Assembly: GCF_050920415.1 (NCBI RefSeq)
Contig: NZ_CP169309.1
DNA: 64,000 bases
From: Escherichia coli
GTDB taxonomy: Bacteria > Pseudomonadota > Gammaproteobacteria > Enterobacterales > Enterobacteriaceae
Strand: one strand, 5' to 3'
The notes below the pieces were generated by a model. That model worked only from the letters and a program-made list of their open reading frames with translations. It was not told the DNA's origin and did not search any database. A program made the translations under genes and the position numbers. Position 1 is the stretch's first letter; every line of letters begins with the position of its first letter. Positions 4,261 to 51,169 of this stretch are shown piece by piece.

Positions 4261-4683
4261 TTATGCAATACGGACGCGAATAAAGTCAACTTCTCCCAGG
4301 GTTACGTTTTCCTGGCAGTAGGCGACAGCAATTTCAGGTGTTTCTGCTTCTGCATTAACCAGACGGAAGCCAGTTGCATCAATGGTGATAGCTGCGTCTT
4401 TGACGTAATCGCCAGCCGGGAGACGGATTGCGAACTCACGCCCCTCTTCCATGTAGTCAGCGACCATCATTTCATCTTTTGCGATCTTGTCACCAATGCC
4501 TTTACCCTGGTGATAAGCAGGCATAGCAACATATAAACGACCTTCTCCTTTGGTTGCCGGAGTGAATTTGCCGTTAGCGATAACAACAGGTGCGCCAGGT
4601 TGAACGTCAGCGGCTGCTAGATAGCTTTCGGTAATGGATTTACCGTCAATATTTACACGACGAAAACGAAACATTGTTATCAC
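4261..4683 (-). CDS. phage head structural protein (decoration-like)
   Basis: 140-aa ORF between the scaffold-like and capsid genes. Confidence 0.35.
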   Translation of the reverse strand: MITMFRFRRVNIDGKSITESYLAAADVQPGAPVVIANGKFTPATKGEGRLYVAMPAYHQGKGIGDKIAKDEMMVADYMEEGREFAIRLPAGDYVKDAAITIDATGFRLVNAEAETPEIAVAYCQENVTLGEVDFIRVRIA

Positions 4684-12934: not shown

Positions 12935-13135
12935 TTACTTATTCCCCATTCGCGCGTCGTGTTCCTCTTGCGCTCGTTTGTTCTCCTGTGATTTGAAGTA
13001 ATAATTAACGGCAAATGTGCCTATGGTTGATAAGATACCCACAAATACAGCAACATCATTAATGGTTATCGCACCAAAAAAGGCCGTTACGGCCCCTACT
13101 GCATACGCGCACACCTCCCGTATTTTGTCGAACAT
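12935..13135 (-). CDS. pinholin-type holin (S21-like)
   Basis: 66 aa, two hydrophobic helices, charged C-terminus [15 protein letters not shown] resembling S21; GGAGG SD. Confidence 0.6.
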
Positions 13136-13153
13136 AGATTTACCTCCAACAAA

Positions 13154-13177
13154 GCAAAAACCCGGCGCGGGGCCGGG
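13154..13177 (-). terminator. rho-independent terminator just upstream of the holin (tR'-like)
   Basis: Minus strand CCCGGCCCCGCGCCGGG hairpin followed by TTTTT, about 20 nt before the holin RBS. Confidence 0.5.
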
Positions 13178-13413
13178 TAATTACAATTTCGCATTGTTAG
13201 GAAATATTTTAATCTATTTGTTTTTTATGCGCGATTATGGCTACAGTTTCTTAATTAATAGCCCATTATCAAGTAATAATTGCATTTGCTCGCGGCTCAT
13301 TAGTGAATCTTTCCAGTATGGGTCATCAATAGTCATAATCATCACTTTGTCGCCTTTTAGCATGTAGGCTATACCGAACAAAGTATGTGAATAAACACCA
13401 TCTTCGATCTCAT

Positions 13414-13596
13414 TCATAGTCCGCTAACCCTTACCACATCGCCGTTATAAAGCATGATTTCAATCATTGCTCGCGTCATCTCGATGAATGGCTTCCTCCA
13501 GTCACCACCATCAATACAGACACGAATATCATCACCTTCCACGCGGTAAAACATCTCGTCGATTAGTGTTACGGCGTATATACCATCTTCAATCAT
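13414..13596 (-). CDS. hypothetical protein, paralog of the adjacent gene
   Basis: 60 aa; shares a YR(V/L)EG...PF(I/L)(E/T)MT...I(I/E)(A/I)M core with the next ORF. Confidence 0.4.
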   Translation of the reverse strand: MIEDGIYAVTLIDEMFYRVEGDDIRVCIDGGDWRKPFIEMTRAMIEIMLYNGDVVRVSGL

Positions 13597-13866
13597 TTAA
13601 CTATCCTCTTTGAATAGCCTAAATTTAATATCGCCAATCTTGCGCCAGTATCCGTGATTAAACATCGCGATGATCTCCGCAGATGTCATAGTTAAAAACG
13701 GTTCATGCCACGGCTCAAGCTGGTGTAATCGCATCATTACGTGTTCACCTTCAAGGCGATAATAAGCGCGTGACGCCAATGACTGATAAACACCGTCATA
13801 TTTATGGTCGCTATTTCCCATTTTTACGCCCCTTAATGGCTCTTTTGATCTGCGTGCGCGTGGCAT
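13597..13866 (-). CDS. hypothetical protein, paralog of the adjacent gene
   Basis: 89-aa ORF, start uncertain; tandem duplicate of 13414-13596. Confidence 0.35.
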   Translation of the reverse strand: MPRARRSKEPLRGVKMGNSDHKYDGVYQSLASRAYYRLEGEHVMMRLHQLEPWHEPFLTMTSAEIIAMFNHGYWRKIGDIKFRLFKEDS

Positions 13867-20356: not shown

Positions 20357-20958
20357 GCCGCCTTTCTCCTTAAGGCGTCCAATTTTGCCTGATAGATGTT
20401 TATTAGCTCCTTACATTCTGCGATCGTCCATTTGTGCGTATCGTTGTTGTTCTCCAGTGCTACCACCCTGGCGAGGCCAATTTTTCGAATCAGCGCCGGG
20501 CGATACCCTCCGATGTTGCCGTCTAGTGTCTGGTTGCAGTGCCTGCATTGCTTGTGACAATTATCCTCGTTGAAGCGAAGGTGTCCGGCGGCGGCTACCG
20601 TCCTGTAATGGCCTGCATCCCACCCGCATTGCTCACCGTAGTAAGTCCCGCATGATATGCACGGCAATCGCGCGTCACGCTCGCGTATATAAGCGTTAAA
20701 AACGTTTTGCGCCTGTTTAATCCAGTAGCTACGCGGATTTAACTGCTTCCGCTTCCGGTTGCGTTCTTCCCGCTGGCTATCACGGCGTTTCTTCCGTTCC
20801 ATAGCCTTCATAGCCTTCTCACGGTCGCGGCATAGCTGATCAAACTTCAGTTCTTCCAGACATTCATCGCTGCACCACGTTTGATTGTGATATTTAGGCT
20901 CAAAAAAAACGCCGCAGCATTTGCAACGGCGTCTTATGGGTTTTTTAGGGTTCTGCAT
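20353..20958 (-). CDS. ninG: NinG (Rap) recombination protein
   Basis: RSYWIKQAQ...AYIRERD...PCISCG...WDAGHYRT...LRFNE...HKQC closely matches lambda NinG; start at MQNPKK with a GGGGTGG SD. Confidence 0.75.
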   Translation of the reverse strand: MQNPKKPIRRRCKCCGVFFEPKYHNQTWCSDECLEELKFDQLCRDREKAMKAMERKKRRDSQREERNRKRKQLNPRSYWIKQAQNVFNAYIRERDARLPCISCGTYYGEQCGWDAGHYRTVAAAGHLRFNEDNCHKQCRHCNQTLDGNIGGYRPALIRKIGLARVVALENNNDTHKWTIAECKELINIYQAKLDALRRKAA

Positions 20959-20972
20959 AAAAACCACCCCTA

Positions 20973-21149
20973 TTATTTTTGATTCTCTGTTTCGTTCAGC
21001 CTTTCGGCGTGTCCGGCCCTTAGCCGATGATCTAAGCATTCGTTGCACTCGTTACGGCCTCCTTTCTTCGTGCTGCATACATTGCACATTGCACGCATGA
21101 CGCTCTCTCGTTCATAGTCGTCATGCCATTGGTAATCATCAAAAGACAT
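20973..21149 (-). CDS. ninF: NinF-like small zinc-ribbon protein (58 aa, absent from the ORF track)
   Basis: AAGGAGAG SD; ESV(M/E)RA..C..C motifs and length equal to lambda NinF; directly upstream of ninG. Confidence 0.5.
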   Translation of the reverse strand: MSFDDYQWHDDYERESVMRAMCNVCSTKKGGRNECNECLDHRLRAGHAERLNETENQK

Positions 21150-21270
21150 AATGCTCTCTCCTTTTCAGGTGATTTCTACGCATTTCAGCGCTGCCGGATT
21201 TTTAAAGAGCATTTCGTTTGCTTGAAGTATACAAAATGGATGCACCTGAACAAGGCAAAAAGCGCCATTA

Positions 21271-21286
21271 TGTGACCAAAATCACA
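21271..21286. promoter_or_regulatory. CRP-like palindrome TGTGA-N6-TCACA
   Basis: TGTGACCAAAATCACA in the intergenic region upstream of ninF, 8 bp from a GCCATTTTGTAAACTTT element. Confidence 0.4.
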
Positions 21287-21308
21287 CAATGACGCCATTT
21301 TGTAAACT

Positions 21309-22067
21309 TTAGTCCGGTAAAACGCGGTTAAGCGTAGTCCGCGTGATGGCCCGGTCGTTAGCCAGGAATACAGCACGGGCGAAGCCGCGCGGCGTTAGTG
21401 ACCGGATCATCTTTGTTCGCTTTGCCCGGCCTCCGGTTTTCGCCCACCCAGGGTTATCACCAGAGTTAAGATCTACAGGTCTAAAAATCGGCTGTTTAAA
21501 TCCGTTGCCGCACCAGATGCAAGTTTTCTTCGTGTACGCGTCGCGCGCCGGGTAAACATCCGGGAAAGCAGGATGCTTGTCATCTTCCGGCAGATAGCCA
21601 CCGTAAGCGCACGGATTGAAGATAAAATCTGGTTTACGCCATAACGTTGACAGTGCTCCTACCGGATTTTCCACCATCCACGGGACGTTATACATGTCAG
21701 CCAGTGTTTCGACCAGTTTCGCGTTATATGCCGCCTTCACCTGGAAGTCAGGATCTTTTTCACGCTTGCTGGAGAACCAACGAGCGCCGGACACGGCGAG
21801 ATCGTCGCATGGTGGGAAGGCAAAAATAATGTCAGGATCTGGATAAACAGACAATTCAGGGGAGAATATTACCAGGAAATGGCTATCAATCCAGACATTG
21901 ACATATTCAATATTGGGATGAATTACTTTTACTCCGTCATAATCCCCGTGATTAGCGCCGTCATAGTTGAAGCAATAGCACTTATATCCAGCTTCAGCCC
22001 AATCTTTAACGGCGTACCCGCTGCCATCGTAAAGCGACCATACCACCCAATTTTTAAGACTGCTCAT
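21309..22067 (-). CDS. DNA cytosine-5 methyltransferase-like protein (compact, PCD variant)
   Basis: 252 aa with motif I-like LYDGSG, motif IV-like FPPCDDLAVSG (D where C5-MTases have Q), motif VI-like ENPVG. Confidence 0.45.
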   Translation of the reverse strand: MSSLKNWVVWSLYDGSGYAVKDWAEAGYKCYCFNYDGANHGDYDGVKVIHPNIEYVNVWIDSHFLVIFSPELSVYPDPDIIFAFPPCDDLAVSGARWFSSKREKDPDFQVKAAYNAKLVETLADMYNVPWMVENPVGALSTLWRKPDFIFNPCAYGGYLPEDDKHPAFPDVYPARDAYTKKTCIWCGNGFKQPIFRPVDLNSGDNPGWAKTGGRAKRTKMIRSLTPRGFARAVFLANDRAITRTTLNRVLPD

Positions 22068-22573
22068 CTTCTACCCTCAAACGTAAAATAGCGGCGCATG
22101 ATGATAGTAATCACCGTTACCGCTGCCATTTTTGAGATGAATTGCATAGCTGATATTTCAGGCATGAATGCCATAAACGATAGCGTAGGAAAAATTAACG
22201 CATCGCCAATGGCGGACGCTATATTTGCAGGCCAGCGTTTTGAATCGAAATCACCAGGTAAAACCCGGTAAACGCCGCCAGAAATAAGCGCACCGGAAAC
22301 AACCGCGACGAATGACGCGATCGCCACCATCCCGGCGTCGTAATTTATCAGCACCGTGATTGCGCCAGCGGCGGCGCATGTTGTAGCCGACCATTTCAGG
22401 CCGCCGTCATATAACAAGAAGTCACGAATCATCATATTGACGCACACAGCGGCTACCGTGGTGATCGGAATTACCCACGGGCCGCAATGGTTAACAATAA
22501 GATTAATGATCACGAAAACGGCGACATAAACGCAGGCTAATAACCTGTCAATTGTCACCTTTTCCATTTGGAT
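22064..22573 (-). CDS. integral membrane protein (4-5 predicted TM helices)
   Basis: Hydrophobic ORF between the two methyltransferase-like genes; start uncertain. Confidence 0.4.
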   Translation of the reverse strand: MQMEKVTIDRLLACVYVAVFVIINLIVNHCGPWVIPITTVAAVCVNMMIRDFLLYDGGLKWSATTCAAAGAITVLINYDAGMVAIASFVAVVSGALISGGVYRVLPGDFDSKRWPANIASAIGDALIFPTLSFMAFMPEISAMQFISKMAAVTVITIIMRRYFTFEGRR

Positions 22574-36022: not shown

Positions 36023-36667
36023 ATGAATAAACTTAAAGCAATTGGCGTAATTCGCCATCGTGTAGACCCGGACTACCCTTCTTTTGAGGTTGCCACATAC
36101 CGCAACGAATACCAATATGGATCATCTTTCCTTGTGGGTGTTCGCGCTGATACTGGCGGCACTTATTCAGTTATGGCGGCTTCATGTGTTTTTGAAGAAT
36201 ATAAAAATATAGATGATGACGGCATGAATAAAGAAAGCGAAATTATTGATGAATTAATCGAAGATGAGCGGCATGATTGCGATGCGCCGAAAGTCACGGA
36301 ATGGAAACCAGGAGAAAAGCCTCCGTGCGGCGTGTGGCTTGATTGTTATTATCCTGATGGCTATCACATTGGGATTTTAATGTTTAAATTTATCGGTGAT
36401 AAATACGGGGTATACACAGAAAAAGGCAGTATACAGAAAGAAAATGCTATTGAATGGGGTTTTTATAATTATTATTTATACGTTGATCCGAAAGAAAAAG
36501 CACTGGCACAAATTGCGTTTGCGTTGGCTGCTAAGGTTATTGGTGAGGATGCGGCAGGAGAAATAAATTTCAATCGTGATAATGATTATTCGCGTGATTA
36601 TCGGAATATGGCAAAAGCCATTATTAATGGGGATATCCCGCTAACTAAATATAACGGGGATAAGTGA
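36023..36667 (+). CDS. hypothetical protein
   Basis: 214 aa; GAGG SD; unknown function. Confidence 0.4.
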   Translation: MNKLKAIGVIRHRVDPDYPSFEVATYRNEYQYGSSFLVGVRADTGGTYSVMAASCVFEEYKNIDDDGMNKESEIIDELIEDERHDCDAPKVTEWKPGEKPPCGVWLDCYYPDGYHIGILMFKFIGDKYGVYTEKGSIQKENAIEWGFYNYYLYVDPKEKALAQIAFALAAKVIGEDAAGEINFNRDNDYSRDYRNMAKAIINGDIPLTKYNGDK

Positions 36668-36897
36668 TGGATAAAACCGCGACATTGTTATTGACTACGG
36701 CACGAATAAGGGAAATGCTCGGAGGAATAAGTAGGACAACATTCAGAGTATGGAAAATGAAATGGGAAGCGGCTGGAACACCATTTCCTGAACCGCTTCA
36801 CGAATTATCAACTACGTCGCGCCCTGTATATCGTTATCAAGATGTAATGCAGTTCTTTAAGTCAGTAGGCTTGCTTTCTGATACTGATAAAACGTAA
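36664..36897 (+). CDS. AlpA/Xis-family DNA-binding protein (putative excisionase)
   Basis: 77 aa; IREMLGGISRTTFRVW...FPEP...RPVYRYQDVMQFF fits the AlpA-type HTH pattern; adjacent and convergent to the integrase. Confidence 0.55.
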   Translation: MMDKTATLLLTTARIREMLGGISRTTFRVWKMKWEAAGTPFPEPLHELSTTSRPVYRYQDVMQFFKSVGLLSDTDKT

Positions 36898-38057
36898 TTA
36901 GCCCATAATTCCGCAGCGTCTTTCTGTTCTTCTACATAATCATATCTGTCATAAACTCCTAATACTCCGCCCAGGGTATGGCCCAACATTTTTTCGGCTA
37001 CCTGGGCGGTCACGCCTAATGCCGCTAAATGCGTGCGGCACGTCCGGCGCAAATCATGCGCAGTAAAACCCGCCTTAAATCCAATTTCATTACTAAGCCT
37101 TGTCGCTAGTCTTGTGCACACAGCTTTATCCATTGGTTTACCATCCAGCGACAATACCGCAGGGAAAACTATGTCGAAGTTGTGACAATTAAACATCATG
37201 CTTAATAGCTCGACGCTTAACGTTGACAGGCCGCGCGTAAACCGCTTTTTGTTTTTGGATAGTTCCGCAGGAATATTCCATACCCTGTTATTGAGATCAA
37301 AATGTTCACGCTTTGCTAGCCTCAATTCTACCGTCCTGCATCCTGTTAATAGCAGTAGTCTGAAGAATGTCATATTGGCCTTAGACATAAAATCGCCAGT
37401 CGTAAAACGCCAGAATTCCCCTACTTCCTCGCCAGATAAATATCTGTCGATCTTGCGCGGCGGTTTGCCAACGTCTTCCACTCGCAACAAGCGGATCTCG
37501 TTGTCTTTTACTATCCCTTTCCTTTGCGCCATAGCGACAATGGATTTCATGCGTCGTAACATCGCGCCAGCCTGTACCGGATGGCCCGCTTTCGTTATCT
37601 CTGAGAATATTGCCTCCCACGCCCTTGCGTTAATGTCATCCACAATAAAATCGCCATACCTCTTGATTATGTGCTTTTGTAAGTTTTGCTTGATCTCTTT
37701 GTATCCCTTAATTTCCCTGGTCGTCTGTTTATTAAGATAGTTGTTAACGATATCGCTAACGGTTGCTCTCGCCCTCGCCTCTTCAATGCGCTGCTTCTTA
37801 GCAAGTCCGGGATCTTTGCCGTCTGCTAATATCGCCTTGCACTCAATTACCGCTAGCCTGGCTTCCTTTAGCGTCATTATGCCATAGTTGCCTAGCTTCA
37901 TTCTTTTAGGCTTCCCGTCATACCTGTAGCGATACTGAAACGTAATTACGCCTTTCGGGCTTACCCTTACTGACAGACCGCCGCCATCCGGGATCTCGAC
38001 CGGACCATCATAACTTTTACCGTGGATGCTTCTTAACTTAGTGTCAGATAACGCCAT
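36837..38057 (-). CDS. tyrosine-type site-specific integrase (P4-like)
   Basis: 406 aa; C-terminal catalytic region with HDLRRT and LGHT...Y; lies at the prophage-chromosome junction. Confidence 0.8.
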   Translation of the reverse strand: MALSDTKLRSIHGKSYDGPVEIPDGGGLSVRVSPKGVITFQYRYRYDGKPKRMKLGNYGIMTLKEARLAVIECKAILADGKDPGLAKKQRIEEARARATVSDIVNNYLNKQTTREIKGYKEIKQNLQKHIIKRYGDFIVDDINARAWEAIFSEITKAGHPVQAGAMLRRMKSIVAMAQRKGIVKDNEIRLLRVEDVGKPPRKIDRYLSGEEVGEFWRFTTGDFMSKANMTFFRLLLLTGCRTVELRLAKREHFDLNNRVWNIPAELSKNKKRFTRGLSTLSVELLSMMFNCHNFDIVFPAVLSLDGKPMDKAVCTRLATRLSNEIGFKAGFTAHDLRRTCRTHLAALGVTAQVAEKMLGHTLGGVLGVYDRYDYVEEQKDAAELWANYVLSVSESKPTDLKNCITS

Positions 38058-38404
38058 AATCGCCCCTTATTTGGTGCACAACATGGTACACAAATCATGG
38101 TTTACGCAATATAACGCAAAAGCGCGCTTGTTTACAGCGAAAACCAGTAAATCTACTAAATTCATGGCGTTAGGGGTGATTTTGCTTGCGTATGTTTACG
38201 CTTGTGCGCGGTATGTAGCATTAGAAAGAGAAATGCTGCTGACCAACAGCGCACAACACGTGACTGAAACAGAGTGCTTCATAAGTTACCCTCAAACCTG
38301 CGTTAATAATCATGCGTAATTATTTGTTTCGCCTTAAAGAAATGCAAACAACTTCCGGCAAAAAAGTGATACGAGATCGATAACATAGCGTTGAAGAAAA
38401 GGAT
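38058..38404. mobile_element. prophage right attachment junction (exact att core not determinable)
   Basis: Non-coding region between the integrase 5' end and host mpaA; no tRNA recognised. Confidence 0.35.
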
Positions 38405-38464
38405 TTGATAATCCGCAAAATTTGCACAACACTGCCTGTAATACTTCCTGAACCAGAGACGATC

Positions 38465-39193
38465 ATGACCGTAACTCGCCCACGCGCCGAACGCGGCGCA
38501 TTTCCGCCCGGTACAGAACATTACGGACGTTCATTATTGGGCGCGCCTTTGATCTGGTTTCCGGCCCCAGCCGCCAGTCACGAAAGTGGTTTGATTCTGG
38601 CTGGCACCCACGGTGATGAAAACTCTTCGGTCGTGACCCTCTCCTGTGCTCTGCGGACATTGACACCTTCTTTGCGCCGCCATCATGTGGTGCTGTGTGT
38701 GAATCCTGACGGCTGCCAGTTAGGGTTACGGGCCAATGCTAATGGCGTGGATTTAAATAGAAACTTTCCGGCAGCAAACTGGAAGGAAGGTGAAACGGTT
38801 TATCGCTGGAACAGCGCCGCTGAAGAACGTGATGTCGTTTTACTGACAGGTGACAAACCTGGCTCCGAACCTGAAACTCAGGCGCTGTGCCAGCTTATAC
38901 ATCGCATTCAACCTGCCTGGGTGGTCTCATTCCACGATCCACTGGCCTGTATTGAAGACCCCAGACACAGCGAATTAGGTGAATGGCTGGCCCAGGCGTT
39001 TGAATTGCCACTGGTAACCAGCGTCGGTTATGAAACGCCTGGCTCTTTCGGCAGTTGGTGTGCAGATCTGAACTTGCATTGCATCACCGCAGAGTTTCCG
39101 CCCATCTCCTCCGACGAAGCCAGCGAAAAATATCTCTTTGCGATGGCAAACTTGCTGCGCTGGCATCCTAAAGATGCAATTCACCCGTTGTGA
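38465..39193 (+). CDS. mpaA: murein peptide amidase A
   Basis: 242 aa starting MTVTRPRAERGAF, matches E. coli MpaA. Confidence 0.8.
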   Translation: MTVTRPRAERGAFPPGTEHYGRSLLGAPLIWFPAPAASHESGLILAGTHGDENSSVVTLSCALRTLTPSLRRHHVVLCVNPDGCQLGLRANANGVDLNRNFPAANWKEGETVYRWNSAAEERDVVLLTGDKPGSEPETQALCQLIHRIQPAWVVSFHDPLACIEDPRHSELGEWLAQAFELPLVTSVGYETPGSFGSWCADLNLHCITAEFPPISSDEASEKYLFAMANLLRWHPKDAIHPL

Positions 39194-40133
39194 ACTGAAG
39201 CGCCGGTTCCACATCTACCGCCAGCCAGGTCGGTCCGTCAAGATCGGCGAAACTGACCTGCGGCACCAGCGGTAAAGCGGCGCTAATGGCACGAGAGGTA
39301 CACAACATGCAGCCCAGCATCAGACTAAAACCTTGTGCACGTGCTTCAGTCGCCAGCGCCAGCGCTTCCGTCAGGCCACCCGTTTTATCGAGCTTAATGT
39401 TAACCATCTCATAGCGCCCTTGCAGCGCCTTCAGATTGCTACGAGTATGACAACTTTCATCTGCACAAATCGGTAACGGATGAATAAAATTCTCCAGTGC
39501 CGCATCGTCCTGCGCAGGAAGCGGTTGTTCAAGCATCGCAACGCCTAAATCCGCCAATAGCTGGCAACGCGCCGCCAACCCTTCTGAACGCCAGGATTCA
39601 TTTGCATCAACGATCAGCGTCGCATCGGGCACAGCTGTGCGAATTGCCACCATCCGCTCACTGATAAGATGGTTATCCAGCTTCACTTTCAGTAATTTCG
39701 CGCCTGCCTGCCAGAGTGTTGATGCACTATTGGCCATCTGATCAGGCGTACCGATGACTACCGTCTGGGCAGTGGTGACTGTCTCGGGAAGCGTTATGCC
39801 GATCAAATCAGCCAGCGATTGCTGCTGTTTTCGCGCCGCCAGATCCCACAATGCACAATCCAGCGCATTACGTGCTGCGCCGGCAGGGAGAATTTTTTGC
39901 AACTCCTCCCGTGTCAGCCCTTTCTCTAATTGCGGCACGACGCTCATAATTTGCGCCATTACCGAGGCATCACTTTCTCCATAACGCGGATACGGCGTGC
40001 ATTCACCGGTGCCTTTAATACCTTCTTCTTCCAGTTCAACCACCACCACGCGCGCTTCACTACGACTTCCCCGAGCAATCACAAACGGGGTATGTAAGGG
40101 CCAGGCTTCCTCAAATACCTTAACGGTTCTCAT
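39168..40133 (-). CDS. ycjG: L-Ala-D/L-Glu epimerase
   Basis: 321 aa starting MRTVKVFEEAWPLH, enolase-superfamily; conserved neighbour of mpaA and tpx. Confidence 0.8.
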   Translation of the reverse strand: MRTVKVFEEAWPLHTPFVIARGSRSEARVVVVELEEEGIKGTGECTPYPRYGESDASVMAQIMSVVPQLEKGLTREELQKILPAGAARNALDCALWDLAARKQQQSLADLIGITLPETVTTAQTVVIGTPDQMANSASTLWQAGAKLLKVKLDNHLISERMVAIRTAVPDATLIVDANESWRSEGLAARCQLLADLGVAMLEQPLPAQDDAALENFIHPLPICADESCHTRSNLKALQGRYEMVNIKLDKTGGLTEALALATEARAQGFSLMLGCMLCTSRAISAALPLVPQVSFADLDGPTWLAVDVEPALQFTTGELHL

Positions 40134-40251
40134 CTTTACTCCTTGTTGTCGCGGTGGTCTGCAGATTAAGCGCAAATAGCGTTTGCTGTGTTATTGACAG
40201 TTAGCATAAACTAGGTGTGACGTTAACTATATGTAAACAGGAAAGATAATC

Positions 40252-40758
40252 ATGTCACAAACCGTTCATTTCCAGGGCAACCCGGTTACAGTCGCCAATT
40301 CCATCCCGCTGGCGGGTAGCAAAGCGCAGACTTTTACTCTCGTGGCAAAAGATCTGTCTGACGTCACCCTCGGTCAGTTTGCGGGTAAACGCAAAGTGCT
40401 GAACATTTTCCCGAGTATTGATACCGGTGTTTGCGCCGCATCAGTACGTAAGTTTAACCAACTGGCAACCGAGATCGACAACACCGTTGTGCTGTGTATC
40501 TCTGCTGATCTGCCGTTCGCCCAGTCTCGTTTCTGCGGCGCAGAAGGTCTGAACAACGTTATCACCCTCTCCACTTTCCGTAACGCTGAATTCCTGCAAG
40601 CCTACGGTGTGGCAATTGCTGATGGCCCACTGAAAGGTCTGGCAGCGCGTGCCGTTGTGGTTATCGATGAAAATGACAATGTGATTTTCAGCCAGCTGGT
40701 TGATGAAATCACCACCGAGCCGGATTACGAAGCAGCTCTGGCTGTACTGAAAGCATAA
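40252..40758 (+). CDS. tpx: thiol peroxidase
   Basis: 168 aa, matches E. coli Tpx. Confidence 0.9.
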
Positions 40759-40764
40759 GTTAAT

Positions 40765-40793
40765 ATGCCTGATGGTGTTGCACCATCAGGCAT
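40765..40793. terminator. bidirectional terminator hairpin between tpx and tyrR
   Basis: ATGCCTGATGGTG-TTGC-ACCATCAGGCAT perfect palindrome. Confidence 0.6.
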
Positions 40794-40801
40794 ATTCGCG
40801 C

Positions 40802-42343
40802 TTACTCTTCGTTCTTCTTCTGACTCAGACCATATTCCCGCAACTTATTGGCAATCGCGGTATGCGAAACGCCGAGACGTTTTGCCAGTTTGCGCGTGCT
40901 GGGATAATTGCGATAAAGCTGACTTAATACCGAGCGTTCAAAACGGCTGGTAATTTCGTCCAGCGAACCTTCCATCGCATCTTCGCCCACGGCTACCGTT
41001 GCGGCGTCATAATCCGGCAACAAAATATCCTGAGGACGCAGCTCATAGCCGTCCAGTTGTGTCAGTGCGCGATAGATAGCGTTCTTTAACTGCCGCACAT
41101 TTCCCGGCCACGCATAACGCGTAAGTACAGTATTCAGGTCAGCGGCCAGTTTCGGACGCGGCACGCCCTGCTCGTCGGCAAAGCGGGCGACGAACAGCTC
41201 GGTTAACGGCATGATGTCCTGCGGACAGTCACGTAACGGCGGCAGATTGAGCGTCAACACGTTCAGACGATAATAGAGATCTTCACGGAACACGCCTTTT
41301 TGCACCAGTTCGACCAAATTCTTCTGCGTAGCGCAAATAACCCTTACATCGACATGCACTTCATGATCTTCACCAACTCGACGGAAAGTACCATCATTAA
41401 GGAAACGCAGTAATTTCGCCTGCATCCTTGGCGACATCTCGCCTATCTCATCTAACAGCACCGAACCACCGTTCGCCTGCTCAAAGAACCCTTTTTTACC
41501 TTCCGGAGCATGACCAAACAGTTCACTCTCGACCGCATCTTCCGGTATAGACGCGCAGTTCAGCGCCAGATAAGGTTTGCCCGCTCGTGGGCTTGCCTGA
41601 TGGCAGGCGTAGGCAAAGAGATCTTTACCTGTACCGGTGTCACCCGTAATCAGCAACGGCGCGCTTAGCATCGCCAGTTTCTGCGCCTGTTCGACAACAT
41701 GCTTCATTTTCGGGCTGACGGCGACAATTTGACTGAAGGCACTGACGTCCTGTGCAGCGACATTCTGCAACTGACGACCCATACGAATCGTCGAGCGCAA
41801 CATCACCACCGCACCGGTCAGAACGTGTTGATCATTTTCATCCTGAAGATAAACAGGCGTAATCTCCATCAGGAAATTCTGCCCATTAATAACGACATGC
41901 TCGTTATGCGAGTCTTGCGGTTCGCTTTCCAGCCAGCGTAAAAAATTAAAGCCGTTAATTAATTGCGCGGCGGTATGGTTGCGCAGGCGATCCAATTTTT
42001 GCCCAAAAAGCTGACAGCTCGCCGGGTTCGCCATATCCACTTTGCTTTTCATATCAACAGAAAGCACAGGCTCAGGCAACGCCTCCAGTAACGCGCTCAA
42101 CGCCAGATGCTCACGTTCGGAAGGCATCCACGGAACAGTGCGCACATCGGTAACACCTGCAATACGGCGTATTTCGGCCATCAGACTGCTGAAACTTTCA
42201 AATTCCAGTTCGGCAAAATTGAGGTAGATTCGCCCAATGGGGTCAATCTCAATACCGCGTAAATCAATACCTCTTAGCACGAGTAGATCGAGTAATTCGC
42301 GGGTCAGACCGAGTCGGTCTTCACAAAAGACTTCCAGACGCAT
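40802..42343 (-). CDS. tyrR: transcriptional regulator TyrR
   Basis: 513 aa starting MRLEVFCEDRLG; sigma-54-type AAA+ core and C-terminal HTH. Confidence 0.9.
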   Translation of the reverse strand: MRLEVFCEDRLGLTRELLDLLVLRGIDLRGIEIDPIGRIYLNFAELEFESFSSLMAEIRRIAGVTDVRTVPWMPSEREHLALSALLEALPEPVLSVDMKSKVDMANPASCQLFGQKLDRLRNHTAAQLINGFNFLRWLESEPQDSHNEHVVINGQNFLMEITPVYLQDENDQHVLTGAVVMLRSTIRMGRQLQNVAAQDVSAFSQIVAVSPKMKHVVEQAQKLAMLSAPLLITGDTGTGKDLFAYACHQASPRAGKPYLALNCASIPEDAVESELFGHAPEGKKGFFEQANGGSVLLDEIGEMSPRMQAKLLRFLNDGTFRRVGEDHEVHVDVRVICATQKNLVELVQKGVFREDLYYRLNVLTLNLPPLRDCPQDIMPLTELFVARFADEQGVPRPKLAADLNTVLTRYAWPGNVRQLKNAIYRALTQLDGYELRPQDILLPDYDAATVAVGEDAMEGSLDEITSRFERSVLSQLYRNYPSTRKLAKRLGVSHTAIANKLREYGLSQKKNEE

Positions 42344-42490
42344 GGGAACCTTCACCTGAAAAAAGAACAATTAATATGATGATATGACACTATTTGGATA
42401 GCAGGAAGGTTTCTGTCAACAATCATTGACACAAAGACGGAAAAACGGGCACTTCGGCGTAAAGATATCCGGTCAGCACCCGATATTGCA

Positions 42491-43552
42491 TTATTTTTCG
42501 CTGGGCGTTTTGCCTTTTTGCAGCGTCTCTTTCACCTGACCGATAAGCTGACGACGGAAATCCCCGAGGCGAGGTTTGTCATCGTCAATCCACGGCAGCG
42601 GGCGGCAAAGCTCCATAGCTTTAATCCCCAGTCGTGCCGTCAGAAGTCCAGCACCAATTCCCTGAGCTGCGCGGGTAGACAAACGCGCAGCGAGATCTTG
42701 CGACATCCAGTCCATCCCCACTTCGCGCACCAATTCGCTGGCTCCGGCAAAAGCGATATTCAGCAATACCAGCTTAAACAGGCGCAAACGGCTGTAATAT
42801 CCCAGTTCAATGCCATACAGCGTGGCGATGCGATTGATCAAACGCAGATTGCGCCAGGCGATAAATGCCATATCCACCAGCGCCAGCGGGCTAACGGCGA
42901 TCATTAACGTTGATTCCGCCGCTGAGCGACTGATTTCGCGCCGCGCCTGGGCATCTAAAACCGGCTGGACCAGATGAGCATACAGGCTGACCACTTCACG
43001 ATCGTTCTGCGTTTCATGGATTGAGGCATACCAGCGTTGCAGTGCCGGATGCGACTGGTCGATGCCCGCCTGCTGCGCCAGTTTTTCGCAGAATGCACGG
43101 CCTTTACCCGTGCCGTGGCTGTGCAACAAATCGCGCGCTTCGTCGCGTTCATGGGCGCGCTGTCGCAAGCGCCATAAGCGCCGCCACTCTGTTACCACAG
43201 AACCTACGCCAGCGCCGATAATCAATGCCCCAGCGGCACAGCCGCCCAGGGCCACCCAGTCCTGAGTTTGCCAGGCGTTCATCGTCCACTGCACACCCTG
43301 ACCAACAACGCTTGCACCAAACAGAGCCAACCCGCCCATCACCATTTTGCGCCACAGGCTGCGTTTCGGACGTAACGCTGCGTCCATCACCGCTTCAACT
43401 TGCCCCTCTTCTTCCTGCGCTTCGTCGAGCGTGGCCGGGGCAAAATTTTGCGCCTGATTTTCGTCAAAGGTCTGCTGCGCCCTGAATTTTGGATTCTGAT
43501 CGACCTCCAGTGGACCGTCGAAATCAATACGTGGTTTTAACGGTTCGGTCAT
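42491..43552 (-). CDS. ycjF: UPF0283 inner membrane protein YcjF
   Basis: 353 aa; conserved partner of ycjX. Confidence 0.8.
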
Positions 43553-44946
43553 CGCAATTTATCTCCTATTAAAAATTCCAGCGCAGCATCAAGGCGAATA
43601 TGCGGCAACGGTTTGTCGACATCCATTACCTGCGGGCGAAACGCCTCAAACTGGAAGCCTTGCTTATCCCAGAACGCCTGGCCAGGCAAACGTGCGGGAA
43701 CTTCGCCAGGATACACAGTGAGCGGTGCGCCATCGCTGAGTCGATTACCGCGCAGCGCCGGGATTTTCTCACCGTTAACATCAATAATGCCGCTGGTGGT
43801 CGCCTGAACTGACGCCAGCCCCAGGCAGTCCATGCTGATCCCTTCGAACGCCGCATTTTGCCAGGCATCCTGAATCAGTTGTTGCAGTAATGAAACCATA
43901 TTGGCGTGCTGATCGATGGTCACATGATCCGCTTTAGTGGCAGCAAACAATAGCTTATCGATAACCGGCGAAAACAAGCGCCGGAACAAGGTACGCTGCC
44001 CGTAGTGGAAGCTTTGCATCAGCTGCGTCAGCGCCAGACGCATATCATTGAATGCTTGTGGTCCACTGTTGAGAGGTTGCAGGCAATCCACCAGCACAAT
44101 CTGCCGATCAAAGCGCAGAAAATGATTTTTATAGAATCCCTTCACCACTTTCTCGCAGTAATAATTAAATCGTTCGCGCAGCATTCCGGCATTGGTGTGC
44201 TTGTCGGCTTGTGCTAGTTTTGATTCGCCCCAGGCATCGACATCTGGCCACGGGAAGAATTGCAGCGCGGGCGCACCTGCCATATCGCCCGGCAAGACAA
44301 AACGCCCAGGCTGAATAAAGTGCAGCCCCTGCTGTTTGCAGTGGTGGAGATAATCGGTCCATGCGGCAGCAATGTCTGCAAGACGGTTTTCGTCGGCAGG
44401 TGCTAGTGGGTCCAGCCCTTCGCACATCATTCGCCATTTTGCCGACCATTCGCCGCGCTGACCATTGAGTAAGCCCGTCATCTGGCGCGACCAGCTTAAA
44501 TAGTCCTGCGCCAACATCGGCAAGTCGAGTAACCATTCGCCAGGATAATCCACTATCTCCAGATACAACGTGGAAGTGTCTTTGAAGTGACGCAACAGCG
44601 AATCGTTCGATTTATAGCGTAGCGCCAGGCGAATCTCACTGACGCCGCGTGTTGGGGTTGGCCAGGCGGGAGGATCGCCATATAACTGCGCCAGCCCTTC
44701 ATCGTAGGTGAAGCGCGGAATGCCAAAGTCACGCTGGGGAATGCGTTTTACGCCCAGCAGGCGCTCTTCACGCACCGCACTTAATAGCGGCAAGCGTGCT
44801 CCGGCATGAATATTGAGCAACTGATTGACCATCGCAGTGATAAACGCGGTTTTGCCGCTGCGGCTAAGTCCGGTTACAGCGAGGCGCAGATGTCTGTCGA
44901 CACCCCGATTCACCAGCGCATTAAGTTCATTTTTAAGTCGCTTCAT
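43549..44946 (-). CDS. ycjX: P-loop NTPase YcjX
   Basis: About 465 aa from MKRLKNELN; Walker A GLSRSGKT. Confidence 0.8.
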
Positions 44947-45090
44947 TGCTGTCCTGTGGACCAGAAAAAAATCATTCGTAAGGATATGAATGTGGGGGCC
45001 ATGCCCTTGATTATCAACTGCCCGTGTTGTCATCTTGAGGCGAACTCCATAAGATGTGCAGCATTCACGTTCGGACGGAGTTCCTGACCT

Positions 45091-46089
45091 ATGTCCCCTA
45101 CTATTTATGATATTGCCAGGGTTGCCGGCGTATCAAAATCCACCGTATCACGCGTGCTGAATAAGCAAACCAATATCTCCCCGGAAGCGCGCGAAAAAGT
45201 GTTACGGGCCATTGAAGAATTACAGTATCAGCCAAATAAACTGGCCCGCGCGCTGACCTCTTCGGGCTTTGATGCCATTATGGTGATTTCTACCCGCTCG
45301 ACCAAAACTACGGCGGGTAACCCGTTTTTCTCCGAAGTTTTGCATGCCATTACCGCCAAAGCGGAAGATGAGGGTTTCGACGTGATATTGCAGACGTCGC
45401 ACAACCCGGCTGAAGACTTACAAAAATGTGAAAGCAAAATTAAGCAGAAAATGATTAAAGGCATTATTATGCTAAGTTCGCCAGCAGATGAGTCTTTTTT
45501 CGCCCAACTCGATAAATACGATATTCCGGTGGTAGTAATTGGCAAAGTTGAAGGTGAATATGCCCATGTTTATTCTGTCGATACCGATAATTTTGGCGAC
45601 AGTATTGCGCTGACCGATGCATTAATTGAAAGTGGACATAAAAATATTGCCTGCCTGCATGCTCCGCTTGATGTTCATGTTTCGGTTGATCGCGTTAATG
45701 GCTATAAGCAAAGTCTGGAAGATCATAATATTGCAGTGCGCAGTGAGTGGATCGTTGACGGCGGTTATACCCATGAGACAGCATTAAAAGCCGCACGGCA
45801 ATTATTAAGTCAGTCACCGTTGCCTGAGGCAGTGTTTGCTACTGACAGCCTGAAATTAATGAGCATTTATCGTGCGGCGGCAGAGAAAAACATTGCTATT
45901 CCGCAGCAGTTAGCGGTGGTGGGTTATAGTAATGAAACGCTGTCGTTTATATTAACGCCTGCACCGGGCGGCATCGATGTTCCGACGCAGGAGTTAGGTC
46001 AACAAAGCTGCGAGTTATTATTCCGCTTAATTGCCGGAAAACCGTCACCACAAAATATTACCGTTGCCACGCATATGTCGTTGAAATAA
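45091..46089 (+). CDS. ycjW: LacI-family transcriptional regulator YcjW
   Basis: 332 aa; N-terminal LacI HTH ([21 protein letters not shown]). Confidence 0.85.
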
Positions 46090-46109
46090 ATGCCAGCTAC
46101 GTTGCCTGA

Positions 46110-46186
46110 ATGCCGGATGCGATGCTGGCGCATCTTATCCGGCCTACATTTATAAACCGGATAAAGTACTCGCGCCGCATCCGGCA
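46110..46186. repeat. REP/BIME-type extragenic palindromes
   Basis: GCCGGATGCGATGCTGGCGCATCTTATCCGGCC and CGCGCCGCATCCGGCA copies. Confidence 0.55.
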
Positions 46187-46199
46187 ATTTAGCACATTA

Positions 46200-47105
46200 T
46201 CAGAACGCGTAATTCACACCGACACCTGCATAATGGAATTTATCGCTGTCGCCTTCATCGTGATCCTGCCACTCAAACGCGTATTCCAGCGAAACGGAAA
46301 GACCATTCTGGAAATCATAACCGTAAAACAAACCAAGACGGTTAAAATCATGGCCTTCACGTTCGATATCATCCTGCCAGTCCCAGTTACTCCAGCGATC
46401 CAACCCAATGCGCGTATACGGTGTTACCGAGTGATTGCCGAGCGTCAGCGGTAAATAGGCGCGAATTTCTTGCGTGGAGAATTCACCGTTATTGCGGCTG
46501 TCGTCCATATTGAAGCCGCGCTCGAGATAATAGTTCACCCGCAAGGCAACCGTTTCGTTGAAGGTATATTGCAGACCCGTTTCCGTTTCGACACGGGTAT
46601 CAGCATAACCGGTCGTATTCAGATCGTTGGCAAATTTATACATCGACAGCCAACCGTTGAAACGTAAATCGTCAGTCAGTTTCACATCCCAGTCTGGCGC
46701 GATTTTCCAGCGCTGCATATTTGCCGTGTCTTTACCCGGTTCATCAACGTAGTGATAACCATAGTTACGGAAACCACCGGTCAGGCCGAAACTGAAATCA
46801 TCGCTTTCGAGAAACTGATAATGCACTTCCAGTTCCGGGCGATCAAACCAGGTTCCACGTTTACCCGCGCTATAATCTACCGGCCCTTCCTGGTAATAAG
46901 CCAGCGATATTCTCCACGGCCCATTGGCAGCATTAAAATAGACGGAAGGCTCCGCCAGCCCGTCCATATCTTCGCCATAACCCTCAACGTTTTCTATTTC
47001 GTACATCGCGCCGATATTAAAGTGCCAGTCTTTTTTTTCCTCAGCCTGTGCGCAGGCCATTCCCGCACACATCACCAGTGCGGTACAGGGTAATAACTTT
47101 TTCAT
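46200..47105 (-). CDS. ompG: outer membrane porin OmpG
   Basis: 301 aa with signal peptide; matches OmpG. Confidence 0.9.
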   Translation of the reverse strand: MKKLLPCTALVMCAGMACAQAEEKKDWHFNIGAMYEIENVEGYGEDMDGLAEPSVYFNAANGPWRISLAYYQEGPVDYSAGKRGTWFDRPELEVHYQFLESDDFSFGLTGGFRNYGYHYVDEPGKDTANMQRWKIAPDWDVKLTDDLRFNGWLSMYKFANDLNTTGYADTRVETETGLQYTFNETVALRVNYYLERGFNMDDSRNNGEFSTQEIRAYLPLTLGNHSVTPYTRIGLDRWSNWDWQDDIEREGHDFNRLGLFYGYDFQNGLSVSLEYAFEWQDHDEGDSDKFHYAGVGVNYAF

Positions 47106-47149
47106 TATTGTTCCTTGTATTATCCTGGGGGAATGCCTTCCCCCTGTAT

Positions 47150-48232
47150 TTAGCGAATTGCTATTTCCGTTTCTGCATCAAAGAAATGACATTTGGTCAT
47201 ATCAAAATGAATAGTGACGTTTTCTCCTGCATGATAATCATTTAACGCACCGGCACGGACCACCAGCTCGTGCCCCCCAACCGTGGTGTAGAGCATAAAT
47301 TCCGCACCGGTTAATTCCGCCACGCTAATTTTGGCGGAAATGTTATTTTCCTCTTGCGCATCCGGATGAATATCCTCCGGGCGTATTCCCATCACGATGG
47401 GTTTATGCAAACTTTCCTGCGTTTTCAGAACGGCTAATTTATCTTCGGGAATGGTTAATTTAAGCGTTTCCGTAACGAATTTATCGCCATCGATCGTGCC
47501 GCGAATAAAATTCATTGCTGGTGACCCAATAAATCCGGCAACAAACATATTCGCCGGTTGGTTATAGACCGTTTTCGGCGCACCGACCTGCTGAACAATC
47601 CCATCCTTCATAATGACAATCCGCGTCGCCATGGTCATCGCTTCGGTCTGATCGTGGGTCACGTAGATCATGGTGGTGTTCAGTTTCTGATGCAGCTTGC
47701 TGATTTCCGCGCGCATTTGTACGCGCAGCTTGGCATCCAGGTTAGAGAGCGGTTCATCCATCAAAAACACGCCCGCTTCACGCACAATCGCCCGTCCGAG
47801 CGCCACACGCTGGCGTTGCCCGCCGGAAAGCGCCCCCGGCTTGCGTTTCAGGTACTCACGCAGGCCGAGGATTTGCGCCGCCCAGTTAACCCGCTCATCA
47901 ATCACCTCTTTGGCGATTTTTTGCATCTTCAGGCCAAACGCCATGTTGTCGTAGACCGTCATATGCGGATACAGCGCGTAGTTCTGGAAAACCATCGCAA
48001 TATTGCGCGCTTTGGCCGGAACGTCATTCATTCGTTTGCCGTCGATCAACAGATCGCCGCCGCTGATCTCCTCAAGCCCGGCAATCATACGCAGCGTCGT
48101 CGATTTACCGCAGCCCGACGGACCGACAAACACGATGAACTCTTTATCGGCAATCTCCAGGTTGAAGTCCTTCACCACATGCACCTGGTTATCGTAGATC
48201 TTTTGAATATGTTGTAACGAAAGCTGTGCCAT
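47150..48232 (-). CDS. ycjV: ABC transporter ATP-binding protein YcjV (intact)
   Basis: 360 aa; Walker A GPSGCGKST, signature LSGGQRQR; MalK-like. Confidence 0.85.
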   Translation of the reverse strand: MAQLSLQHIQKIYDNQVHVVKDFNLEIADKEFIVFVGPSGCGKSTTLRMIAGLEEISGGDLLIDGKRMNDVPAKARNIAMVFQNYALYPHMTVYDNMAFGLKMQKIAKEVIDERVNWAAQILGLREYLKRKPGALSGGQRQRVALGRAIVREAGVFLMDEPLSNLDAKLRVQMRAEISKLHQKLNTTMIYVTHDQTEAMTMATRIVIMKDGIVQQVGAPKTVYNQPANMFVAGFIGSPAMNFIRGTIDGDKFVTETLKLTIPEDKLAVLKTQESLHKPIVMGIRPEDIHPDAQEENNISAKISVAELTGAEFMLYTTVGGHELVVRAGALNDYHAGENVTIHFDMTKCHFFDAETEIAIR

Positions 48233-48245
48233 GTTGATTCCTTTG

Positions 48246-48905
48246 CTATACGTTTTGCCAGAAGGCCGATAACCGCGGCCAGGTCAGAGATTCCGTTGAG
48301 GGCAGCAACAGTTGCGCCCCGGTTAAGCTCGTGCCGATCCCCACCGAGCGCATACCGCTGGCGTTAATGGCGTCAATGCCCGCCTGCGCATCTTCAATGC
48401 CAATGCAGGCCTGTGGAGGCACGCCCAGCCCGGCACAGGCGGCGAGAAAGATTTCCGGATCCGGTTTCGAGTGTTTAAGTTGGGAAGCGTCCGCGCAGAA
48501 GGTGAAAAACTCGCGCAGCTCCAGCGCCGCTAAAATTGTTGGGGCATTCAGAGAGACGGAGGCCAGCCCTACCGGGATGCCTTGCGCCCGAAGATCTGCC
48601 AGCAAAGGCCGAATTCCCGGCAGAACAGCGTTAACCGTCAGTTCGCGCAGTGAGTGGACGTAGAGCAGATTTTTGCGATACGCCAGTTGCGCCCGCTCTT
48701 GCACGTTAAAGTCGCCCTCTTTGCCCCCGTGTTGCAGAATGCGCCGCAGGGACTCATCGCGGCTGATCCCTTTTAACGTCTCGTTAAATTGCGCATCGAT
48801 GCTGATGCCGATTTCGGCGGCAATCTGCTGCCATGCCTGGAAGTGCAGATGTGCGGTGTCGGTGATCACGCCATCCAGATCGAAAATTACCCCTTGTAGT
48901 TTCAT
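48246..48905 (-). CDS. ycjU: beta-phosphoglucomutase
   Basis: 219 aa; HAD motif [10 protein letters not shown]. Confidence 0.85.
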
Positions 48906-51169
48906 TCATCCTCCTGATGTTTGGTAGCGGTCCCATTGAAGGGCAAAATAAAATCACCCAAACAGAAAACAGATTCTTCAGTCACGGAAATAAGCTGACC
49001 GTTCAACCGCATTGAAACGGGCGCAGAAGTTCGAATCGCAATACGCTGCGCGTCGAGAGTGACCTGTAATTCGCAGCCCTGCCAGAACAAAGGGAAAGAT
49101 AACTGTTGCCACTGCTCAGGTAACGCTGGGTTCAGATGTAATTCGCCGTCGCGCACGCTGACTCCGGCAAAACCCTGAATCGCCCCCAGCCAGATAGCGC
49201 CAGTTGCGGCGGCATGGATACCGTCATCGCAGCTATGCGGATCAGCACCAAGATCGATTTCACTCCCCTCGCGCCAGAACGGGTAACTCTGCGCAAGCAA
49301 GCCACAACGCGCGGCAACAATGCCGTGGATCGCTTTACTCAATGACGAGTCGTGAATGGTGCGCGGTTCATAAAATTGCAGATTGGCGAGACAAGAGGCC
49401 GCTGAAAATTGTTCTGGTAGCATGTAATTGAGCATCACCACATCGGCCTGCTTGAGGATCTGCATCTCGTTCACTTCTGCGCGTGAATAATCCAGCAGAA
49501 TGGTTTGTTTGCCTGCCGCCGCTTTGTATTTCGCCAGATCTATCGCCGGTTTCGCCATAAACGAATCATCCTGCGGCAAAACGCCGTCGGGCTGAATTTC
49601 TGGCATCCACAGCTCTTTGAGGAACATGTCGGCACGATGAATAAACGCATCGTCGCTACAGCCAAACTGGCGAGCAATATTCAGTGCCTGTTGGACGTTG
49701 TAGCAGGCCATATAACTTGTGTATGCGTTATTGTTAACGTGTTCGGTATATTCGTCTGGCCCAATAACATCATGAATTTCCAGACGATCGTTAACCCTTA
49801 CCGCGCGGCTAATCCAGAACTTTGCGGTCTCCAGCAGTAGCGCCATGCCTTCGTGAGCAACGAAGCTTTCATCCCCCGTTACCTGCCAGTATTGAATAAC
49901 CGCCCAGGCGATATCGGCAACCAGATGATGTTCCGCCTGCGCTGAGGCCACTTTTTGCCGTAGCCCGGTACGAATGTTTATGGCGGCAAATTCCGGGGTC
50001 TCTTCTTCGCCGCTGCGTGCGCTTTCCCACGGAAATAGCGCGCCCTGCCAGCCATTGCGTCGCGCTTTCTCCTGCGCCCCCGGTAAGTTGTGCCAGCGAT
50101 AGCGCAGCAAACTCCGGGCAATCGTCGGTTCGCTAAACAGATGGAACGGCAGCAGGAACACTTCCGTATCCCAGAAAACATGGCCTTTGTAGCCTTCCCC
50201 GGTTAAGGCTTTTGCCGCAATGCTGCTACGCTCGTCGTGGGCGGGCGTCATAATACGCAAATGATAAAGCGCATAGTCTAACGCCCGCTGATCGTGCGTA
50301 TCGCAACTCTTTACCGTGATACGACGTTTCTGCCACCATTGCTGCCAGTTTTCTGTCGATGCTGCAAGAAGTTGGTCATAACTCTGTTGTGTACACATTT
50401 CAAGCTGGCGAAGCGACGCACTGCCCCACTCGTCTAAAGCGGCTTGTCGGTCATCCCGCCAGTCAATCCACACCCGCTTTTGCAAGGTCAGTGTTTCACC
50501 TGTGCGAAGTTGCGCGCTGGTATGTTGCAGCAAACGGCGCTCTTTGGCGGTATAGCACTGCTGAACGTCACCACTCGCCTGACAGTGACAACTGATTGCC
50601 ACATCACTGCGCCCATCCTGGGTGGTGTAGATCCCCTGCATCAAATGCTGACCAAACACCCGGACCTGGGTTTCATCCAGATGCTGGCGACCGTGGTTGG
50701 TTTGCGTGGCGTTAATGCCTGTTGAGATCAGCACTGATGCCTCGGCGTCCAGCGGGGTAATACTGATTTCCAGCGCGATCAGCGGCAGTTGATCTGTCGA
50801 AACAAAACGACGACTTGCAAGGGTAAACCGTGCGCCGTCGCTGCTGCGCCAGATAACACTGCGGCGTAATTCTCCACTGGCAAAGTCAAGCTCACGCTGC
50901 CACGCTTCGCGGGATAACGAAAAAATCTCGCCGTTTAGGGTAATTTCCATTCCCACCACGTCTGGCAGATTCACCAGTTCGTTGATTTCTCCTTTCCCGG
51001 CTCGATGATAAAGCCCTGCCAGATACATGCCGCGCGTCTGCCGCGTGTAATCTTCTTCATGGCTGGCACGAAGCCCAAGATAGCCGTTCCCCTGCGCCAT
51101 TAATGAGGCATATTTATTCAGGGTATGCTGGCTGAATTGGGGTTCCGTTAATGTTACTGGCCTGGTCAT
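48902..51169 (-). CDS. ycjT: kojibiose phosphorylase (GH65)
   Basis: 755 aa; conserved ycj operon position. Confidence 0.85.

Follow-up and report, generated by a model that had tools for sequence, protein, structure and literature searches.

Site-specific integration of an mEp_immI-group prophage into the 5′ end of mppA as the most probable origin of a prophage–host junction beside mpaA in Escherichia coli

The integrase end of a prophage that adjoins mpaA in the 64,000-nt stretch of E. coli DNA analysed here (the window) is a real, well-defined prophage–host junction. Taken as a whole, it is very probably explained by site-specific integration of an mEp_immI phage into the 5′ end of mppA. 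It is proposed that a temperate siphophage of this group entered the start of mppA, the gene for a periplasmic murein-tripeptide binding protein, by a single reciprocal crossover within an 8-bp core, which would be catalysed by the phage’s own heterobivalent tyrosine integrase; positions 36837–38464 would then represent the attR end. The attachment site itself was already published in 2025, and the case is tidy and largely ordinary. What is added to a site published from one genome is its definition at base level, that is, the core, the arm repeats, attP, and an isogenic attB. One detail, the phage-borne replacement of a start codon and signal peptide, is apparently absent from the literature.

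The integrase gene (36837–38057, minus strand) encodes a 406-aa tyrosine integrase of the mEp_immI “type III”. Two Pfam domains were found above cutoff, PF13356 Arm-DNA-bind_3 (E 2e-19) and PF00589 Phage_integrase (E 8e-18), together with a match to PF22022 Phage_int_M below the Pfam cutoff, and the open reading frame matched a PHROG integrase family with an E of 2e-66. The catalytic R-H-R-H/W-Y set, read off the sequence, is represented by R241, H334, R337, H360, and Y369, the last of which we take to be the nucleophile because its distance to H360 resembles that in lambda Int. The start of the integrase gene is separated by 407 bp from mpaA (38465–39193, plus strand), an intact host gene for murein tripeptide amidase with a Peptidase_M14 match and the annotation MpaA in homologous genomes; the placement of the prophage’s integrase end beside mpaA in an earlier note on this DNA is therefore correct. 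A 77-aa small DNA-binding protein (36664–36897, plus strand; PHROG 4745 “DNA binding protein”, E 8e-9) is encoded convergently to int, the two genes overlapping at the int 3′ end. Its mEp021 counterpart carries the annotation HTH protein, and from its position it is a candidate excisionase. On the host side, positions 38214–64000 align to E. coli MFDS1022581 as a single 25,787-bp block of 99.98% identity, and the order mpaA-ycjG-tpx-tyrR-ycjF...pspF-puuE-puuB bears out the colinearity with K-12 that had been claimed. The absence of a tRNA gene from the junction was also confirmed: ARAGORN found no tRNA or tmRNA in the whole 64-kb window, and Rfam gave no credible match in 37800–38700, which rules out a tRNA or sRNA target at the junction and with it tRNA targeting of the P4 type.

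The phage part of the window (1–38231) is the right-hand ~38 kb of a ~54-kb prophage of the mEp_immI group, and the left ~14 kb, including attL, lie beyond the window start. Positions 1–25000 show 86–89% nucleotide identity over 77–93% of their length to phages MagusPhagus, mEp010, mEp554, mEp044, mEp013, mEp515, and mEp021, and the remainder, to ~38230, is colinear with the prophage of strain GF66.2, in which a LexA-family repressor is annotated. Membership in the mEp_immI group is thus given by genome-wide similarity and synteny with mEp021-type phages, and membership in its type III by an integrase of the LSU61 type inserted at the mppA start. The group and its four integrase types were defined in 2025 (Front Microbiol; PMC11893012), and for type III, integration at the start of mppA was described from one example, a prophage of E. 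coli O157:H7 LSU61 (PMC11893012, Table 2, section 3.4). The integrase region of the window is ~96% identical at the nucleotide level to that of LSU61 and GF66.2, and the integrase protein shares 99% identity with that of an IMG/VR contig and 48% with mEp021 Int. The prophage occupies the same mppA site as that of LSU61, the two junctions being identical around the core, and represents a second lineage of the LSU61-type III kind in a new host context. The tail-tube protein is common to many mEp-like prophages and was uninformative for tracing attL.

When the junction was compared by BLAST with 5426 complete E. coli genomes, the segment ~38214–38369 was found to correspond to the 5′ end of mppA and its upstream region. 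In strains HCM-24C-3 and MFDS1022581, which have no prophage here, the divergently transcribed mppA (minus strand) and mpaA (plus strand) adjoin each other, and alignment places the native mppA ATG at 38282 on the minus strand. The att sequences were aligned as a set comprising the empty attB of MFDS1022581, one intact attP from IMG/VR, and attL and attR of two complete lysogens. As the earlier note had anticipated, alignment to a prophage-free genome could define the att core, and it gave MFDS1022581 as the empty site and an 8-bp core at 38224–38231 (minus strand), TCTCTTTC in the mppA sense. This is the sole stretch identical in attP, attB, attL, and attR across all eight att sequences. The core covers codons 18–20 of mppA (Ser-Leu-Ser), in the signal-peptide region, so the attachment site lies inside a gene of 537 codons and not, as had been supposed, in an intergenic region or a small gene. 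Within a 24-bp segment around the core attP and attB agree at 18 bases, and a 21-nt overlap zone (38214–38234) begins where host homology starts, at 38214, and ends where phage homology stops, at 38234. The attP of the IMG/VR contig reads GCATAATG-TCTCTTTC-TAATGCTACA, and attB, in MFDS1022581 and K-12, reads GCAGCATT-TCTCTTTC-GTATGCTGCA. The attR sequences (window, GF66.2, LSU61) consist of the left flank of attB and the right flank of attP, and the attL sequences (GF66.2, LSU61) of the left flank of attP and the right flank of attB; the overlap is short and identical, and the flanks recombine as predicted for reciprocal products. Excision would regenerate attB, ...ATTTCTCTTTCGTATGCTGC....

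The phage P′ arm of attR (38058–38223) shares 95.7% identity with the attP contig from IMG/VR, an identity that extends up to 38234. This attP contains a 26-nt module composed of two TTTGyGTAnCCAT-like half-sites, present in one copy ~80 nt upstream and two copies ~110–160 nt downstream of the core; the downstream copies are found at ~38070–38121 in the window. The modules are putative arm-type Int-binding sites, as expected for an Arm-DNA-bind integrase, and with PF13356 in the protein and repeats on both sides of the attP core, arm-type DNA binding is predicted. A scan of viral and metagenome contigs with the 17-mer arm pattern TGTGTACCATATTATCT returned 50 loci, which were chance matches, and no further attP or attL. 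Among the 5426 complete genomes, the junction occurs in two, O157:H7 LSU61 and GF66.2, with a best junction match of 95.8%. The exact LSU61-type integrase is present in at least 223 index blocks of the assembly collection, and for this reason the mppA site is considered commonly used in draft genomes, with hundreds of assemblies, although it is rare among finished ones.

What remains beside mpaA at attR is the original promoter region of mppA with its first 20 codons, and the resulting stub points at int. The divergent mppA–mpaA intergenic region (38283–38464) is native and identical to that of the empty site in MFDS1022581. The stub is a truncated mppA′ ORF of 28 codons (38196–38282, minus strand), in which the ATG and signal-peptide codons 1–20 (MKHSVSVTCCALLVSSISLS) are followed by a switch to phage DNA (MKHSVSVTCCALLVSSISLSNATYRAQA, then stop). 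A matching 66-nt mppA fragment is annotated by PGAP as a pseudogene in GF66.2 and LSU61. This 28-codon ORF is the true remnant of the disrupted locus. The plus-strand ORF at 38026–38319, which had been put forward as the remnant, has no Pfam match, lies on the strand opposite the mppA fragment, and is broken up by a 1-nt indel in GF66.2; it also overlaps the int start and was rejected as a gene, being spurious.

Relatives (GF66.2, LSU61, plus 11 more contigs) show at attL how phage DNA makes good the displaced 5′ end of mppA in frame. In the IMG/VR contig, the attP core sits inside a 27-codon phage ORF (MNKIMIYISFLPLCIMSLSNATYRAQA, then stop), upstream of which lie the tail-fibre gene and a strong intrinsic terminator. 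The attL product in relatives begins ATG-MNKIMIYISFLPLC(V/I)(M/I)SLS-YA↓AEVPSG..., compared with the native MKHSVSVTCCALLVSSISLS-YA↓AEVPSG..., where the arrow marks the cleavage site. The phage supplies the start codon, the n-region with its Lys, and the hydrophobic core, and the c-region, cleavage site, and mature protein are native. In the chimeric leader of 21 residues, the in-frame ATG is followed by a Lys in the n-region and by a hydrophobic core of 13 residues that joins the retained SLSYA↓A site. A lipoprotein signal in the leader (LPLC) was considered and rejected. The residue that precedes the Cys of a lipobox must be G, A, or S, and the leader, read from the sequence, does not fit. 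PGAP annotates a full-length chimeric MppA of 536 aa at attL of both complete lysogens, and exact chimeric proteins are found in at least 35 and in 14 index blocks of the assembly collection, counts that are biased toward intactness since exact-sequence look-ups find intact chimeric proteins only. All 11 attL loci shown lie beside a phage tail-fibre gene. For the prophage of the window, whose attL is outside it, we infer from these relatives that integration would join the phage leader in frame to mppA. The expected left end in this strain would be ynaI followed by the mppA body, ...GTATGCTGC(A/T)GAAGTTCCG, preceded by TCTCTTTC, and further by the leader, ATGAATAA(A/G)AT..., and then the terminator GAAACGAGGCTAACGCCTCGTTTC and the tail-fibre gene.

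It seems rather likely, judging from the sequence features of the leader, that it is an adaptation that keeps mppA usable. Two synonymous and three hydrophobic-conservative changes are all that separates the three leader variants. In a crude test, an upstream in-frame ATG with a signal-peptide-like stretch was found at 0.27% of arbitrary prophage positions. Integration may instead inactivate mppA, a possibility that deserves consideration although it is somewhat doubtful on the available evidence. In that case the phage ORF would be a coincidence or a relic, the chimera would be silent, and lysogens would be mppA-null and rely on OppA for peptides. Such an outcome fits with the strong intrinsic terminator situated directly upstream of the leader and the lack of a consensus promoter after it: the stretch from the tail-fibre terminator to the phage ATG gave no sigma-70-like promoter at the tool’s threshold, and the best candidate, TTGyGT-16-TATTAT, matches at 8 of 12 positions. 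The Shine-Dalgarno sequence of the chimeric mppA, read from the sequence, is also weak, and because of this and the promoter result the chimeric gene may be poorly expressed. Inactivation is further consistent with the behaviour of related type I integrases, which disrupt dgcM without a new start. It is consistent as well with the nearest prophage-free relative, MFDS1022581, in which mppA is frameshifted; since this is the closest empty-site genome, mppA may already be dispensable in the host lineage of the window. However, a signal-peptide-like in-frame leader that retains the native cleavage site is expected at only ~0.3% of random positions, three phage variants preserve both frame and hydrophobic character, and the ORF is full-length in both complete lysogens, all of which argue against inactivation.

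A further extension, which we regard as unlikely, is a reciprocal swap of 5′ ends, whereby the leader ORF and a weak P-arm promoter would take over MppA expression and Sec export, while the native mppA promoter would drive int. The intergenic region contains a promoter-like TTTGCA-18-AATAAT (38348 to 38319, minus strand), which now reads toward mppA′ and int. No promoter-like site was found between the core and the int ATG, and int is convergent with the early genes. According to the swap proposal, the native mppA promoter, at a murein-peptide recycling locus, would be the only recognisable promoter into int in the lysogen. If the proposal is true, the supply of Int, and hence excision competence, would depend on a host cell-wall-recycling promoter. 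It is also worth noticing that type I phages cannot work by a promoter and leader swap, which lowers its prior.

If the leader does keep mppA usable, type III lysogens would retain murein-tripeptide uptake, whereas the type I sister phages knock out dgcM. This would make the locus a clear case in which a temperate phage lowers the cost of its own insertion at the 5′ end of a gene for a secreted protein, with a modest consequence that is limited to one phage group.

The relation of the prophage to the K-12 genes missing from this locus has to be considered separately. It had been proposed in the earlier note that the K-12 neighbours of mpaA were replaced by the prophage, and in its full form this explanation assumes that ymjC-ymjD-ycjY were replaced or deleted, that att lies between genes or within a small gene, and that the ORF at 38026–38319 was left over. 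The genes ymjC-ymjD-ycjY are indeed present between mpaA and mppA in K-12-type genomes, and in the window host ymjC, ymjD, ycjY, and pgrR are absent between mppA and mpaA. However, mppA and mpaA are adjacent without a prophage in 173 of the 5426 complete E. coli genomes, one of which has the 99.98% identical flank. Moreover, the lysogens GF66.2 and LSU61 contain the same junction yet keep pgrR-ycjY (and more) between attR and mpaA, as do all 10 of the 10 draft contigs found via the LSU61-type integrase. Compact genomes free of the prophage, on the one hand, and lysogens that keep the island, on the other, show that the phage did not replace ymjC, ymjD, and ycjY. The lack of a family match for the plus-strand ORF and its frameshift in relatives also speak against replacement, which is highly improbable and already refuted by the island survey, the att alignment, and the flank boundaries. 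A 30-nt sequence present in a single copy at 38340–38369 has two copies in K-12-type genomes, one at either end of the pgrR-ycjY-ymjD-ymjC island, as revealed by repeat comparison and overlapping BLAST blocks. The absence of the island is a separate host indel polymorphism bounded by this 30-nt direct repeat and unrelated to the phage. Under the preferred explanation, site-specific integration at mppA, the phage would have entered the gene in a host lineage without the island, hence its direct abutment on mpaA. The annotation of the locus is corrected accordingly: the target of the prophage is mppA, and the missing K-12 genes, being an unrelated indel, are not to be counted as phage-mediated gene loss. 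An assembly artefact, with a phage contig misjoined to the mpaA region, was named in the earlier note as a possible refutation and has a negligible probability: the one point in its favour is that the exact integrase protein of the window is absent from the assembly collection in an exact look-up, while the core region is the same base for base in two independently finished genomes and in the 10 of 10 draft assemblies inspected, and the junction equals the predicted product of attP and attB.

Compared with the LSU61 report, the host of the window differs in its compact mppA–mpaA arrangement, in which the prophage directly abuts mpaA, and the present analysis goes beyond that report in defining the core, the arm repeats, and the leader swap and in finding the site widely occupied in drafts. 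The main text of the 2025 paper makes no mention of restoration of mppA, of a signal peptide, or of a consequence for mppA (PMC11893012). The type I (mEp021; dgcM/ydaM) and type II (abgT) integrases of the group have the same three-domain organisation and the same tail-fibre/terminator/attP/int layout, but type III has another core and another target. In type I the core lies opposite dgcM codons ~15–17, in antisense orientation, and brings no new start, so that dgcM is disrupted, whereas type III rebuilds the mppA ORF. Rebuilding of the dgcM N-terminus by type I was suspected from the mEp021 P arm, ATGATTATTCACAAC, which resembles the dgcM start; it was ruled out by the lysogen MIN12, in which the core has this antisense position, the resemblance is absent, and no start is supplied.

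Similarities to other temperate phages can also be indicated. Like lambda Int and the P4-type heterobivalent integrases, the type III integrase combines an N-terminal arm-binding domain, with binding predicted, and a catalytic domain; the attP arm repeats flank a short identical overlap, and a candidate excisionase gene lies beside int. Unlike those systems, it targets neither a tRNA gene nor the lambda gal–bio site. A gene-preserving insertion at a 5′ coding end has been described for Rac and rac-like prophages in ttcA, which acquires an alternative N-terminus and stays intact (PMC4632033). In that case four residues are changed in a cytoplasmic protein, and the integrase and phage type are unrelated to type III, where the exchange takes in the upstream region, the start codon, and all of the n- and h-regions of a Sec signal peptide. 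The target sites of the mEp_immI integrases cluster within ~14 kb of the chromosome (PMC11893012).

The occupancy of the mppA site is greatly understated by the published count of a single type III prophage (PMC11893012), since the collection of draft and SRA assemblies lists the exact integrase of the complete lysogens LSU61 and GF66.2 in at least 223 index blocks (the compared loci L083-L092 among them), in contrast to 2 of 5426 finished genomes. Among prophage-free strains, MFDS1022581 (NZ_CP169399.1) is the closest to the window's host, with a flank that is 99.98% identical. In this strain mppA (L008 5095-6707) is annotated as frameshifted, and thus the gene may be decaying in this host lineage independently of the phage.

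The host flank at window 40000-50000 (tpx-tyrR-ycjF-ycjX-ycjW-ompG-ycjV and further genes) shows 90-95% identity to most complete E. coli genomes and at least 99% in only 8 of them, which, at the level of sequence, points to an unusually divergent allele block or a rare lineage. Between mppA and mpaA, K-12-type genomes carry the pgrR-ycjY-ymjD-ymjC island with a direct repeat of approximately 30 nt, AAATGCAAACAACTTCCGGCAAAAAAGTGA, at both edges (compared locus L003, approximately 4555-4585 and 7010-7040), the two copies being identical at 28 of 30 positions. One copy is present in the compact arrangement, that is, in the window (38340-38369) and 173 of the 5426 complete genomes. This distribution suggests that the polymorphism arose either by deletion between the repeats or by insertion of the island with duplication.

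In contrast to type III integration at mppA, that of the mEp021-type phages, carrying type I integrase, breaks its target gene. Their att core, TCCAGACAG, lies antisense to dgcM codons ~15-17 (compared loci L067 1-200, L068 3040-3156, and L070 2470-2700); no replacement start for dgcM is supplied by the phage in these loci, and the gene is truly interrupted. In the window (38058-38223) and in compared locus L007 (5861-6001), the stretch that separates the att core from the start of int showed no sigma-70-like promoter in the direction of int. In the circular phage, the tail-fibre gene is followed by its terminator and then, downstream, by int.

The GF66.2 prophage (L004) is annotated with a T6SS-associated TagO-like protein (13042-13701), an "anti-CBASS Acb1 family" protein (20819-22198), which by annotation occupies the portal position, and the toxin of a toxin-antitoxin system (39909-40172). 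In related loci of mEp-like prophages sharing the tail-tube protein, ParE-like and antirepressor (ANT) morons are located between tail genes.
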